The translations under genes and the position numbers were made by a program. The notes beneath the pieces are model-generated. The model was not told where the DNA came from and searched no databases. It saw only the letters and a list, made by a program, of their open reading frames with translations. A stretch of 64,000 bases of DNA from an uncultured cyanobacterium (lineage in GTDB: Bacteria; Cyanobacteriota; Cyanobacteriia; CAKZMO01): assembly GCA_963719515.1 (NCBI GenBank), contig CAVRCJ010000005.1, forward strand, positions 160,001-224,000, in the 5' to 3' direction. This document shows positions 5,676 to 63,366 of the stretch, in pieces; the stretch's first letter is position 1, and every line of letters begins with the position of its first letter.

Positions 5676-5977
5676 AGGAAGATTTTACGGGAGACCCTCA
5701 GCTTATCTAGGCTTCTGGGGGCTTCGCCCGCCTGCGAGGGCGAAGCGATTCTTTGAAGGGGCGATCGCGAAGTGAGCCTGCAGCGCTGATCGCCTAGCCT
5801 TTTACCACCAGGGCAATATGCTCCAAGATCTAATTGTGCCATTCCTGAAAAAATGACTCACCTTCAGCGCGCGTGAGGTGGAGCCGCTGCTCGGCGTCTG
5901 CTAGCGTTGTGATGGCATTCGGAGTCGCAACTGACATCGGTCGTAAATGGGCCAGAACCCTGCTCGACTAGTCTTAT

Positions 5978-6390
5978 AGAAGACGCCTTATATCCCACCG
6001 CTAAAGCGGTGGGATATAAGGCGGTGAGCGCAGCGAACAATCCCGAAACCCTCACCGTTACTGGGATTTGCTATAATAGAGATGGTCAATGACCCACCCG
6101 AGACGCAGACGCAACAGACAGCCTAACGTGACGAAATCGGCAACAAGCTGATGGCGCGGACAGCTCGGTAGACCGGGAAAAGAGGATAGGGCAACGGAGA
6201 CGACCCTAGAATCAACAATCAACATAGAATTCCTTGAATTCAACAAATAAGAACCGCAGGGCTTGCGGGGATAGTCTGTGGAGCGACCGTAAGACCGGAA
6301 AGGCTTAGGCCTCGAAGGCAGGTGCTATGAAGCAGAAAAATCTTGGAGCGATCCAAGAATCCCACGTGCTTTAGCCGTGGGAGAAGTCAA
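5978..6390 (+). mobile_element. Non-autonomous IS200/IS605-family mini-element (left-end hairpin, promoter, short cargo, omegaRNA-like right end); no transposase or TnpB
   Basis: Perfect 19-bp inverted repeat at 5984-6002/6005-6023; TGnTATAAT at 6069-6077; right end ...AATCCCACGTGCTTTAGCCGTGGGAGAAGTCAA. Both ends align by eye with the ends of the tnpB element at 28508-29866. Confidence 0.8.
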
Positions 6391-6485
6391 TGTATGGCGT
6401 TGGTATGGGTTGAGTTGGCGGCGATCGCAACAGGGAAATCTGCGCGGGGTATGATAGCGCTTTAAGCGACTGTAGGCGTGGGACG

Positions 6486-7780
6486 ATGACTAGCCGCCAA
6501 GAGATGGAAGACCTGCTCGATGAAATGTACAATGCCTTTTCTCCTACGCCGCTACAGCCAGGAGACCCGGCCTATGTAGATTGTCGGGCCGTTCGGGGGG
6601 ATGAGGATGTGCTGGAGGATCTGGGGCGCACGGTAAGGCGATCGCAGATTTTGACCTACCAACTCTATTCCGGCTACCGGGGCTCGGGGAAAACTACAGA
6701 GCTGCTGCGGCTGAAGAAGCACTTAGAAGACAAAGGCCACGTGATGGTCTACTTCGCGGCGGATGAGGAAGACCTCAGCGTCCAGGACGCCCGTACACCG
6801 ATATTTTGCTGGCCTGCACCCGGCACCTGCTGCGCAAACTCGACGAGGCCAACCCAGACCCAATTCTCGACTGGCTGAAAGGGCGGCTCCGCGACCTAAA
6901 GGACGTGATGCTGACTGAGATTAGCGCAGATGACATCACCATAGAGGTGGGGCTGAAGGAGTTCGCTAAGCTGACGACGGCGGTGCGCCGAGAGCCGGGC
7001 CAGCGGCAAAAGATTCGCGATCGCATTGAGCCCCACACCGAGACGCTGATTCAGGCGCTGAATGCGTTTATTGCCGATGGTAAAGGGCAGCTACCAGAAA
7101 AGACAAAGCTGCTGGTGATTGCCGATAACCTGGACCGCATTGTGCCGATCTTTCGCGACAACGGACGCAGCAACCACGAGGAGATCTTTCTCGATCGCCA
7201 CGAGCAGCTAAAGGCGCTGGACTGCCATATTATCTACACGGTGCCGATTTCGATGGTCTATTCTCGCTGGGCCACGGAGCTAAAGGACAACTACGGCATT
7301 CCGCAGGTGCTGCCGTCGATTATGGTGCGGCAGGAGGATGGTGAGCCTTACGCTGCGGGGTTGGAGAAGCTGCAGGAGATCGTTCGGCTGAGAGTACCGG
7401 AGCATTTGCGGGCGTCGCTGGTGCCGGAGGTGTTTGAGTCGGTGGAGGTGCTGCAGGAGCTTTGTTTGATCAGCGGCGGCTATGCGCGGGATTTGGTGCA
7501 GCTGATGCAGGAGGCGATCAATAGGACGGAGACGCTGCCGATTCGGGCGCGGGCGGTGCAGCGGGCGGCGGATTCGCTGCGGGATGTGTATCGGCGAGCA
7601 GTGGAGGAGGACCAGTGGGCAGTGCTGCGGGAGATCCACAGCGATAGAAAGATCGATAATGGAGAGGTAGAGCGGAGCTTGCTGTTCAGCCGCTGCGTGC
7701 TGGAGTATCGCTATTACGATGCGCAGGGCAGTAAGCAAACCTGGTATGACGTTCATCCGGTGTTGTGGAAGGAGCTGTAG
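6486..7780 (+). CDS. P-loop (AAA+/STAND-like) ATPase, ~431 aa after correcting a 1-nt deletion near 6791
   Basis: Walker A GYRGSGKTT in ORF 6486-6878; Walker B VIADNLDR, SGGYAR and C-terminal WYDVHP in ORF 6806-7780. Confidence 0.8.
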
Positions 7781-27041: not shown

Positions 27042-28511
27042 ATGAGCGACCTTGTGTTGATGTCAGCGCATCAGCTGGCAGCTCTGATCCGCGATCGCCA
27101 AGCGTCAGCGGTGGAAGTTCTTGAGGCTTACCTCGTTCAAATCGCCGAGCGCAACCCCGCCCTCAACGCCATCTGCACCCTGGATGAAGCCGGAGCGCGG
27201 CAGCGAGCTGAGCAGGCGGACGAGGCCACCGCTCGGGGCGAAGTTTGGGGACCGCTGCACGGCGTCCCCATCACTATCAAAGATATTTTTGAAACCGCTG
27301 GTCTACGGACGACAGCGGGCTACATCCCCCTCAAAGACCATGTACCGTCTGAGGATGCCACTGCAGTAGCCCGGCTCCGGGCTGCAGGAGCTATCATCCT
27401 CGGTAAAACCAATATGGCGGAGCTGGCGGGAGACTACCAAAGCACCAACTCTCTGTTCCCTAGGGTCAACAACCCCTGGAACCTGGACTACACGGCGGGG
27501 GGAAGTTCTGGGGGCAGCGCCGCCGCCGTCGCTGCTGGCCTCTCGCCCTTAGACCTGGGCAACGACATCGCCGGTTCGGTTCGCCAACCGGCTCATTTTT
27601 GCGGCGTCTATGGCCTCAAGCCTACCGACCGCCGCGTGTCCACCGCCGGACAAATTCCAGAGGTGCCGGGAATGCCGACCTGTATCCGTCACCTCATTAC
27701 GGTCGGCTGCTTTGCGCGATCGCTCGAAGATATCCAGCTCTGCTTCTCCCTGATTGCGGGGGCAGACCGGCGTCGCGCCGATGTCCCCCCGGTGCCGCTA
27801 GACATCCCCTCTAACAGGTCGCTTCAGGAGATCAAAATCGCCTGGAGCAGCGAATGGCCTGAGGTGCCCGTCGCCCGCGACATCCTTAACGCTATGACCA
27901 CAGCGGCGGCGGCTTTAAGTGACGCTGGCGCTCAGCTTGAGGACTGGCGTCCCCAAAATTTCGACCTCTCGGCAACGCTAAACCTTTATACCAGGCTCGT
28001 GGCCTACCTGATGGTCTACGCCCAGCCGGTAAACCGCCACACCCTGCGGCGATCGCTCACTCAAATTTTTCGTACTGCAACCCAGGGAGACCGAGAGCTG
28101 CGGCAGCTGGGCAACTTTGCCGCAGTCCTGCCCGAGCTGCTGAATCCAGGACTGAAGGGATACTTTGAGGCGCTTACCGAGCGCGATCGCTTCATTACCG
28201 CAATGGAAGAGGCTCTAGACCCCTGGGACGTTTGGATTACGCCGGTTGCCGCTACGCCCGCCTTTACCCACCGCCCCGCCTGGAGCGCCATTGAAATTGA
28301 GGGACGACTATACCCGCATGTAGTTGCCAACGGTGCCTACGCGATGCCGTTTAACCTGAGCGGTCACCCGGCGGTGACGGTACCGATTGGACAGACTCCA
28401 GAGGGGTTACCCTTAGGCCTGCAGATCGTGGGCAAGCGCTGGCGAGAGCTGGAGCTGTTGGCGATCGCGAAGCATGTGCAGCGCGCCTGCCGCAAAACGC
28501 CATACACTTGA
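27042..28511 (+). CDS. Amidase signature family protein
   Basis: GVPITIKD, GGSSGGS and GSVRQPA; the stop codon lies within the adjacent IS end. Confidence 0.9.
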   Translation: MSDLVLMSAHQLAALIRDRQASAVEVLEAYLVQIAERNPALNAICTLDEAGARQRAEQADEATARGEVWGPLHGVPITIKDIFETAGLRTTAGYIPLKDHVPSEDATAVARLRAAGAIILGKTNMAELAGDYQSTNSLFPRVNNPWNLDYTAGGSSGGSAAAVAAGLSPLDLGNDIAGSVRQPAHFCGVYGLKPTDRRVSTAGQIPEVPGMPTCIRHLITVGCFARSLEDIQLCFSLIAGADRRRADVPPVPLDIPSNRSLQEIKIAWSSEWPEVPVARDILNAMTTAAAALSDAGAQLEDWRPQNFDLSATLNLYTRLVAYLMVYAQPVNRHTLRRSLTQIFRTATQGDRELRQLGNFAAVLPELLNPGLKGYFEALTERDRFITAMEEALDPWDVWITPVAATPAFTHRPAWSAIEIEGRLYPHVVANGAYAMPFNLSGHPAVTVPIGQTPEGLPLGLQIVGKRWRELELLAIAKHVQRACRKTPYT

Positions 28512-29866
28512 CCACTCCCACGGCTAAAGCGCGTGGGATTCTTGGATTGCTCCAAGACTTTTCTGCTTCGTAGCACCTGCCTTCCGAGATTTGCTCTCTA
28601 TGCGCGAAGCGCAGGCTTGCCAACGGGTCTTACAGTCGCTCCACAGACTGACACCGCTAGACCAGCGGCCAATACGTTTACAGCGGCGTTTACGTCTCTA
28701 TCGTGCTTAACGTCGCACTCAGGGCACTGCCACTGTCGAATGTTCGACGGCAGCTTATCTACGACGTGGCCGCAGCTGCCACAGCGCTTAGAGCTAGGGA
28801 ACCAGCGGTCTATCTTGACGAGCTCTCGCCCGTACCATTCGCACTTGTAGGTAAGCTGCCTCACCAGTTCTCCCCAGCTCGCATCACTGATGGCCGCGCC
28901 AAAGCGTGATTATGGACCATGTTCACCGCTGCTAAGTCCTCAACGGCGATCGCTTGGTTTTCGCGCACCAGCCGGGTTGTCAGCTTGTGTTCGCGAAGCG
29001 TCCCGAAGGGAAGCAGGTCTTTGCGGGCATTGGCTATCTCGGCGTGGACCCTGGCCACCCTGAGCCGCGCTTTGTATCGGTTGTTCGAGCCCTTTTGCTT
29101 GCGGCTGAGCGCCTTTTGAGCTTTTCGTAGCTTGCGGTACTTAGCCCTGAAGCCCTTGGGGTTGGCAATCTTCTCGCCCGTGCTCAGCGTGACCAGACTG
29201 GTGATGCCCAAGTCCAGGCCAACTTTGTTAGGAGATACCGGCAGTGGCTCAATGTCCACCTCCACCAACAGCGACACAAACCACCGACCTGCAGGCGTCA
29301 GCTTGACCGTGATAGTCGATGGTGCGGCAGCTTTCGGAAGCGCCCTAGACCATCGAATGGGCAGCGCCTCAGAGCACTTAGCCAAGTAGACTTGCCCCTC
29401 TCTAAACTTGAACGCCGCCTTGGTAAACTCCGCGCTACCGCCGTTGCGCTTCTTCTTGAAGTTGGGATACTCAGCCCGACCCGCAAAGAAGTTAGTGAAG
29501 GCGGTTTGCAGATGCCTCAGCCCTTGCTGAAGGGGAACCGAGCTAACCTCAGTAAGAAATTCAAGGCCCTCCTCTTTTTTCCACTGGGTCAGCATCGACG
29601 AGGTTTGAGCGTAGCCGACGCGCTCTTGCTTCTGGTACCAGGCCTCAGTCCTTGCCGCCAAAGCGCGGTTGTAGACCAGGCGAGTACACCCCATTGTCCG
29701 GCGCAAGAGGTTGTTCTTGCCCCACAGTAGGATAGAAGCGATAGCGGTAAGCCCTTTGAACCATGCTTACAGCTTAGCGCTCGCTGTGTAAGATGTGGAT
29801 GTGTTCGCTAACGCTCACCGTCTTAATATCCCACCCCTAAAGCGGATGGGTTTTACGGCGACTTCT
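28508..29866 (-). mobile_element. IS200/IS605-family tnpB-only element
   Basis: Minus-strand left end AGAAGTCGCCGTAAAACCCATCCGCTTTAGGGGTGGGATAT; right end ...AATCCCACGCGCTTTAGCCGTGGGAGTGGTCAA. Confidence 0.85.
28598..29764 (-). pseudogene. tnpB: TnpB with two frameshifts (~29713, ~28895) and a 21-nt in-frame insertion
   Basis: MVQRAYRYRFYPT start at 29764; GLDLG, VEDL, CGSCG..CPEC and HDRDVNAA spread over three reading-frame segments. Confidence 0.85.
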
Positions 29867-54664: not shown

Positions 54665-54869
54665 CCGTCAATTGCGCTCTGGCCAGACGTCACACCAACC
54701 ATTACAAAACATTACATAAGTACCCTGCCAAGAACAGTTCGGCAAGCCTGCGCTCAAACAGGCCTAAGCTAAAGCTACAGCAGAAGACAAAACCGTCGGG
54801 CAACGAAACCATCAGAAATAGTTATCGGGAAACGCACTGACAACGGCTGAGCACCGTGCTATTCTTGCT

Positions 54870-54936
54870 ATTGTGTGAGGAGCGAACCAGCAAGGGTACC
54901 GAGACGAAACACGGACAGTCGTCGGTACCCTTTCTG
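54870..54936 (+). ncRNA. yfr2: Yfr2-family cyanobacterial sRNA
   Basis: 5' GTGTGAGGAG motif; stem AAGGGTACCGA/TCGGTACCCTT with loop GAAACACGGACA; promoter CTGACA-17-TATTCT (54837-54865). Confidence 0.65.
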
Positions 54937-55198
54937 CATTTAAACCCAAGCGCTTCGCACCCGACGCTTCGTACGTCTGAGCGCTTCAGTCACCTCAAAA
55001 GCTTTCACCTCAACCCTTGTTCTGTTCTAGCGCTCTTTGCGCTGCGGGCTTCTGTAGTCTTAGGCAAGGCGACCTAGCCGATCGCGTGCTGCAGACGGAA
55101 CGTCTGCGGAATATAGTCTTTTCAAGCGACCAGCCTAAGCTACCTTAGTGTTACTGCTGATCGCTAACACGCGTTACTGGTTGCCAACAAGGACGACT

Positions 55199-62927: not shown

Positions 62928-62981
62928 CGTGAACTCTCCTATAGCTGAACTGGAATACAGGACCTTGATCTTACTGAATAA

Positions 62982-63366
62982 TGGAGCTGACGGGAGTCGA
63001 ACCCGTGTCCGCTCTGGGTAGTCATATTCCGCTCATTCACAGGCTTAGCCCACGTTACCCTGTGGGCGGGGATCGTCCATTGTCCCGGACGTGGGATTCT
63101 TTGGTGAGGTCTTAGCTAGCTGTCTACCAAAGACGACAGACTAGAGCATCCGTTGGGGTTAGGTCCACAGCCCTTAACGGAGTCAAGCCGTGGACTCTCG
63201 CGATCTATGAGAGATGCTTAGGCTACAGCAGGTGCGGCCTTGCGAGAGAAAGCTACGATGTTGTTCGCAGTTACGTGTTTTTGAGCCTTTATTTTCGAGA
63301 GTGGGCTCACTCTCGGCCTGAATCACGAAATAACTTTCGCCAAAACGTCGAAACCGTTACAGCCCC
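62982..63366 (-). ncRNA. ssrA: tmRNA (one-piece), tag ANNIVAFSRKAAPAVA
   Basis: 5' GGGGCTGTAACGGTTTCGAC; 3' T-arm and acceptor GGGTTCGACTCCCGTCAGCTCCA; tag ORF 63268-63218; -10 TATACT at 63387-63382. Confidence 0.97.

Follow-up and report, generated by a model that had tools for sequence, protein, structure and literature searches.

PATE-like elements, which lack genes, frequently specify omegaRNAs that depend on TnpB supplied in trans, and in the homing model TnpB cuts an empty site and recombination then restores the element (accessible part of Meers et al., bioRxiv 10.1101/2023.03.14.532601). Stand-alone OMEGA omegaRNAs have been described as mobilised without an effector or transposase and as working in trans, in a role called unknown (accessible part of PMC10691335, on Altae-Tran 2021). 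Gene-less omegaRNA elements acting in trans are therefore an already published concept. The omegaRNA of ISDra2 has four stems, a guide supplied by the flank, and a pseudoknot that joins the loop of stem 1 to the 3′ end; sequence 5′ of its 116-nt scaffold is trimmed off and not required (accessible sections of PMC10097598).

We analysed a 64,000-nt stretch of an uncultured cyanobacterial genome (the window), in which a 413-bp gene-less element, here called the mini, is related to these systems. Like PATE-like elements, the mini has transposon ends without genes; the accessible part of the PATE text (10.1101/2023.03.14.532601) does not mention an internal promoter, a 5′ RNA domain or an end-swapping lineage. 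It also resembles the stand-alone OMEGA omegaRNAs, for which the accessible part of PMC10691335 mentions no 5′ module. The layout of its scaffold is that of ISDra2, whereas the 5′ extension, which is tnpB coding sequence in ISDra2, is a separate non-coding covarying domain in the mini (accessible sections of PMC10097598). RAGATH-18 (RF03064, IS607 TnpB) weakly resembles the central scaffold stem of the mini, with a match at 6275-6338 of 22.7 bits that lies below the 44.9-bit gathering score; that RNA belongs to the IS607 family, stands downstream of a tnpB gene and does not cover the module (accessible part of PMC11061315). In IStrons, as in the mini, a structured RNA precedes a TnpB omegaRNA within one IS200/IS605-type element, but the introns of IStrons begin at the left end, run to several hundred nucleotides and splice (accessible part of bioRxiv 10.1101/2023.11.20.567912), whereas the module of the mini is approximately 170 nt long, follows a promoter of its own and matches no intron. 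We rejected the mini as an IStron or group I intron (no Rfam intron match, an internal -10 and a TCAA end) and as a HEARO/IscB omegaRNA (no Rfam HEARO match and a TnpB-type scaffold with a 3′ guide).

A gene-less IS200/IS605 element and its copies

The mini occupies positions 5978-6390 and ends in TCAA, and its neighbours are an mprF-like flippase gene and a frameshifted gene at 6486-7780. Subterminal hairpins at both ends, a fixed tetranucleotide on the 5′ side, the lack of a target duplication and the TCAA end identify it as a non-autonomous IS200/IS605 element. The initial annotation had described a 413-bp unit preceded by TTAT and free of long ORFs, and this holds: TTAT stands at 5974-5977 (+), no ORF of at least 80 aa overlaps 5978-6390, and stops occur in all six frames. 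TTAT, the TnpA left cleavage site and predicted TnpB TAM, precedes all five minis of the genome; among cognate tnpB elements, left ends were read for eight, and seven of these also follow TTAT. The right end (6357-6390, +) comprises the DNA guide GAAT, a hairpin and the TCAA cleavage site. The downstream gene at 6486-7780 is apparently split by its frameshift into two overlapping ORFs; it has no Pfam or NCBIfam match and shows, by eye, a Walker-A-like motif.

A single decaying copy lacking compensatory changes had been named among the outcomes that would count against a functional cassette. BLAST of the unit against the 5.28-Mb assembly, one of the checks proposed at the time, instead found four further copies (contigs C14, C15, C3 and C20) at 89-91% identity, giving five dispersed copies, with covarying pairs as described below. 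All five have TTAT on the 5′ side, a TCAA end and unrelated flanks. The C20 copy (L266, G000 C20:68172-70322) is split inside the scaffold by a 1.7-kb element with an IS1380-type transposase.

In IS608-type transposases, the target tetranucleotide is predicted by the left-end DNA guide. The family follows this rule: with the guide read as the four bases at the foot of the left hairpin, the target tracks it among 107 scored copies, TCAT occurring with GAAA in 74 and TTAT with AAAA in 8. The window copy, which combines an ATAT guide with a TTAT target, is the only one of its kind among the 107. A left-end guide complementary to the target is present in its sister copies and absent here, and an AAAA/AAGA-type guide is readable in 7 of 13 other full-ended relatives. 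Within the left end (5978-6035, +), a perfect 18-bp hairpin at 5984-6023 has overwritten the DNA guide at 5990-5993; the ATAT guide is thus explained by correction of the left hairpin into a perfect palindrome. The window copy has probably lost its left-end DNA guide and with it excision at that end, which would leave it immobile with its RNA parts intact, so that the description of this copy as mobilisable probably no longer applies. We also searched congeners for empty sites, another check suggested by the initial annotation, and found no clean one for the mini or for the tnpB element. One congener (G003) lacks approximately 1 kb around the mini, more than the element itself, and three others gave no match spanning the site.

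A conserved RNA module at the 5′ end

The real novelty of the element, overlooked in the initial annotation, is a conserved 5′ RNA module of approximately 170 nt (6083-6251, +), which is neither filler nor derived from tnpB. The region 6070-6270 has no counterpart in tnpB elements, and 6083-6251 likewise has none in the tnpB element at 28508-29866. Among 400 other cyanobacterial genomes, 6070-6270 matched 26, from nine families and mostly at 72-83% identity, and a covariance model of the module found matches in 13 of 150 genomes. A 21-base motif of the module occurs at no fewer than 118 loci, all cyanobacterial by name except for a few unclassified MAGs and one Sericytochromatia MAG; Calothrix, Tolypothrix, Microcoleus and Moorena are among the carriers. 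Viral contigs gave no match to two module patterns, and the module was absent from plasmids, where four records matched the scaffold or right end only.

The module travels with the scaffold. It adjoins an omegaRNA scaffold in 125 of 136 distinct genome copies, a set that includes own-genome copies and related strains; of the remaining 11, six run off the contig or locus and five are truncated. In metagenome contigs it does so in 65 of 74 cases, the others being seven contig ends and two truncations. No tnpB ORF lies between module and scaffold in any of the 136 genome and 74 metagenome copies, and tnpB elements themselves lack the module. Two gene-less relatives in another genome (G183) are also without it, so the module is not obligatory for gene-less elements.

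Coding explanations for the module were not borne out. Among the matches listed, blastx of 112 modules against ten TnpA/TnpB proteins gave nothing below E 0.03, and we rejected a coding remnant for want of convincing similarity. A Shine-Dalgarno-like stretch followed by ATG opens no reading frame that is conserved, and all five copies from this genome carry ACG in place of the ATG. An internal second right end, suggested by a hairpin followed by TCAA, was discarded because the truncated copies inspected end elsewhere. Rfam 15 yielded no match for the module, either in the window (at gathering scores and at E up to 10) or in 19 related loci (at E up to 2); with no covariance-model match, we set aside a known riboswitch or self-cleaving ribozyme. 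Apart from the weak RAGATH-18 match, the sub-threshold matches in the unit do not rise above chance level. A literature search at the level of listings and abstracts found no description of the module, and the accessible parts of PMC13565253, PMC11061315 and bioRxiv 2020.07.02.184192 contain nothing on it.

Comparison of the copies pointed to a compact fold on the plus strand. The model begins with a 5′-terminal hairpin (6084-6094), followed by a long closing helix (6097-6100 with 6174-6177) that encloses a hairpin at 6135-6152 and a predicted pseudoknot helix (6121-6123 with 6153-6155), which crosses a short imperfect helix; a purine-rich internal-loop stem (6180-6213) and a variable hairpin (6224-6240) complete it. 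Of 33 named pairs, 14 vary at both partners across 46 non-redundant copies (five were omitted because of their length or because they were not parsed), compared with 6.9 in shuffles and 3-9 in slid controls, counts that kinship inflates and for which the structure was derived from the same sequences. The three-pair helix 6121-6123/6153-6155 alternates between GC and CG. The helix that it crosses has a mean of 2.75 against 2.28 when permuted (0 of 1,000 permutations) and is imperfect in most copies; one of its pairs is 99% complementary, with five pair types. The pseudoknot is thus a prediction of the model, and the window module alone folds no better than shuffles (z -1.19). Invariant single-stranded positions lie in a purine-rich bulge, in A-rich linkers and in an internal loop.

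More diverged elements retain parts of this fold. Type B keeps the core of the module, joined here to another scaffold that is longer and has a TTCAC end; in one genome (G093) the type B right end also occurs on tnpB elements of another clade. Of 23 pairs compared across the diverged types, 15 vary at both partners, in an alignment that was fitted to the model. Type C has only the outer helices and the purine-rich stem in common, carries a third scaffold, and its core aligns poorly. We also observed eight gene-less IS605 elements (L210, L225, L214, L221, L230, L228, L354 and L355) in which the same two outer helices enclose other folds, and these probably belong to a wider superfamily of 5′ modules.

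Such a fold raises the question of whether the module binds or switches something, as an aptamer for TnpA, TnpB, a host RNA-binding protein or a small ligand that would gate omegaRNA production or couple TnpB to TnpA. An H-type pseudoknot with an inserted hairpin is a topology known from small aptamers, and the module is predicted to have this arrangement, together with invariant single-stranded positions beside covarying stems and a core kept across scaffold classes. Against this, no Rfam aptamer matched, the sense strand of the unit has no terminator, and complementarity to the tnpB mRNA does not exceed that of shuffles; we consider an aptamer unlikely. The same comparison led us to reject an antisense role towards the tnpB mRNA (-32.7 kcal/mol, against -26.3 to -33.7 in 12 shuffles); the corresponding value for the tnpA mRNA, calculated without its own shuffle control, was -25.3 kcal/mol.

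We regard as rather more doubtful a ribozyme, whether self-cleaving, ligating or a reduced intron core, that would set the omegaRNA 5′ end without TnpB. Group I introns end in a terminal G, whereas the element ends in A and its module is set back from the left end, following an internal promoter. Rfam ribozyme and intron matches are absent, and the layouts of twister, pistol, HDV, hammerhead and glmS ribozymes do not fit by eye. What speaks for catalysis is that this mobile-element RNA begins with a fold that is compact, conserved and tertiary in appearance, together with the precedent of introns that partner omegaRNAs in IStrons (accessible part of bioRxiv 2023.11.20.567912). A broader proposal, that the module is a new functional class of RNA, aptamer or ribozyme, for parasitising TnpB in trans, carried by an old independent lineage that combines various scaffolds with host-active ends, is one that we entertain only tentatively.

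Promoter motif, omegaRNA scaffold and predicted guide

The initial annotation had noted an extended -10 motif, and we located it as TGCTATAAT at 6069-6077 (+), directly upstream of the module. Of 101 distinct upstream regions, 97 have a TAnnnT box 4-6 nt 5′ of the predicted start of the RNA, compared with a mean of 9.9 (maximum 18) in shuffles and 0-4 of 101 at other offsets. A sigma-70 scan of the unit found no -35/-10 pair, as expected for an extended -10 promoter. The predicted mini RNA is approximately 310 nt long, and the sense strand contains no terminator within the unit. One run yielded a single 275-nt contig at depth 3 that covers 6072-6327 with 17 differences and includes upstream sequence, and which may be DNA.

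At least four kinds of left end are followed by this box, a point that bears on the idea of a neutral miniature transposon, in which nothing but the DNA ends matters and the interior is similar between copies because the element spread recently. The damaged left end of the window copy would suit such a history, as would the truncated or interrupted relatives (the 11 of 136 above, six of them at contig or locus ends). However, ends are swapped while the interior stays and the promoter box persists, and pairwise module identity falls to 58% (mean 78%) with compensatory changes, all of which makes neutrality very unlikely.

Downstream of the module, the TnpB omegaRNA scaffold spans 6252-6390 (+). 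Its model has 20 pairs, and in 27 copies 99.8% of 540 cells are paired. Stem 1 (6254-6268) carries a loop, 6260-6262, that pairs with 6386-6388 as a pseudoknot to the 3′ end; pairing of this loop with the three bases before the terminal AA is found in 27 of 27 copies, and as two of the three pairs are invariant it reflects conservation and not covariation. Further helices are the stem 6275-6278/6333-6336, stems nested within it and the right-end hairpin. The earlier view that the element keeps the whole scaffold and not only the TnpA hairpins is thereby upheld, the 20 pairs including the 3′ pseudoknot being retained in all 27 copies. The right end had been put at approximately 125 nt; the scaffold in fact begins further 5′, near 6252, and measures about 140 nt.

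The complete scaffold with its 3′ pseudoknot adjoins a variable guide, with 112 distinct flanks among the copies. From IS605 biology, the flank at 6391-6406 (+) is the predicted RNA guide of the window copy, and no other site in the genome lies within two mismatches of it. For 14 guides of this genome, no second TTAT-flanked genomic site appeared among the matches listed (up to 12 per guide), a result consistent with each guide homing to the empty site of its element and not with a set of regulatory guides. A domesticated guide library, directing TnpB at host genes or invaders, could account for the few insertion sites common to related genomes, where up to six loci have identical guides. Yet the guides are mere flanks, the 14 searched here lack a second TTAT site among the matches listed, and the copies sit at unrelated sites; this reading lies at the lower edge of what we find credible.

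Partner genes, origin and proposed function

The cognate tnpB-only element of the window (28508-29866, -) shares ends and scaffold with the mini. Both ends align, as initially claimed, with the right end at 76% identity over 161 columns (E 5e-26), but a variable stem interrupts the right-end match. This tnpB is frameshifted and its left flank is TTTT, not TTAT. Nine tnpB-only elements of the genome have the right end of the mini, and four full-length 413-aa cognate TnpB ORFs (on C13, C15, C3 and C6) show RuvC-type D, E and D motifs by eye. There are also 14 Y1 transposase matches from several families. One of them, on C16, is an intact TnpA, and its element has a TTAC target and the left-end hairpin type of the mini. 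The proposal that the mini borrows TnpB and TnpA in trans thus has intact candidates elsewhere in the genome, the neighbouring tnpB being broken. We infer from the common ends and most of the scaffold that the four intact TnpBs are compatible with the mini; given that only 12-13 of 23 stem 1 positions match the local tnpB scaffold, this compatibility is not certain. Four of five other genomes checked contain same-clade full tnpB elements with the right end and scaffold of their minis, and the three matches in G183 included no cognate tnpB element. The genome as a whole is very rich in TnpB, with 81 zinc-ribbon matches from several families.

The contrast between ends and stem 1 bears on the origin of the mini. 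Relative to local tnpB elements, the window mini matches at 46-48 of 52 right-end positions and at the few stem 1 positions given above, a combination that led us to reject the tnpB element 22 kb away as its parent. For 98 minis of other genomes the pattern is inverted, with medians of 63% at the right end and 91% in stem 1. One scaffold hairpin occurs in two variants, each found in both minis and tnpB elements of the genome. Together, the contrast and the common hairpin variants indicate that minis form a lineage of their own and did not arise by deletion from resident elements; they probably acquire local ends by recombination.

On balance, with moderate confidence, we favour a non-autonomous mini with its own promoter, a module, a scaffold and a flank-derived guide, served by TnpB in trans, in which the module would act as a protective leader. 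Following the known IS605 pathway for transcription, TnpB loading in trans, homing and TnpA mobilisation, the extended -10 promoter would produce an RNA made of the 5′ module, the complete omegaRNA scaffold and the right flank as guide. TnpB from other elements would load this RNA in trans and cut the empty site, where recombination would then restore the element, and TnpA would mobilise the sister copies. The module would be a compact leader that replaces the missing tnpB mRNA, shielding an untranslated transcript from 5′ decay and keeping the scaffold folded until TnpB arrives and trims the RNA. The leader is the least supported step of this explanation. We favour it because the module is confined to gene-less elements, starts where transcription is predicted to begin and persists from one scaffold class to another. 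Protection, however, could be achieved by a 5′ hairpin on its own, and the module is more elaborate than such a role needs.

Restriction of the module to gene-less elements suggests that an RNA acting in trans requires an additional part. The module would be a structured RNA family new to Rfam 15, and its distribution would show mini-elements evolving as a lineage of their own across TnpB clades. If it boosts loading or stability, it would serve TnpB guides as a natural, portable enhancer. The family might also help to raise the expression of guides in compact TnpB editors. With a conserved promoter, a complete scaffold, intact TnpBs and a covarying domain, the system offers a testable handle on stand-alone omegaRNAs.

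Several further observations concern the flanks and other elements. The right flanks of the mini (6391-6401) and of the tnpB element (28496-28506, -) have an 11-mer in common, offset by one base; it occurs five times in the genome, and its pairing of these two flanks looks unlikely by chance. Guide-directed insertion or a local rearrangement is possible. A Tn7-like element between the two right ends was rejected, as the common 11-mer does not extend, and by eye no general sharing of flanks among TnpB elements was seen among the matches listed. The 11-mer also occurs at G000 C5:126577, in an apparent CRISPR spacer between two identical repeats; this match is probably chance, the rest of the spacer fitting neither flank. 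The tnpB locus itself seems rearranged, with its TTTT left flank and with the last 12 codons of the amidase unlike the amidase end of a congener; the stop codon of this amidase ORF (27042-28511) is supplied by the right end of the tnpB element. Two cognate tnpB elements (G000 C13:11280-12112 and C3:818336-819168) have 833 identical right-flank bases and different left flanks; either the copies recombined or the assembly is at fault. A second gene-less IS605 element of the TTAC family (L265, G000 C6:326325-326870) is 546 bp long, with an interior of approximately 250 nt that is unrelated to the module, has no Rfam match and gave one weak match among 300 other genomes. The window also contains a tmRNA (62979-63366, -) and a Cyano-1 RNA (54869-54938, +).
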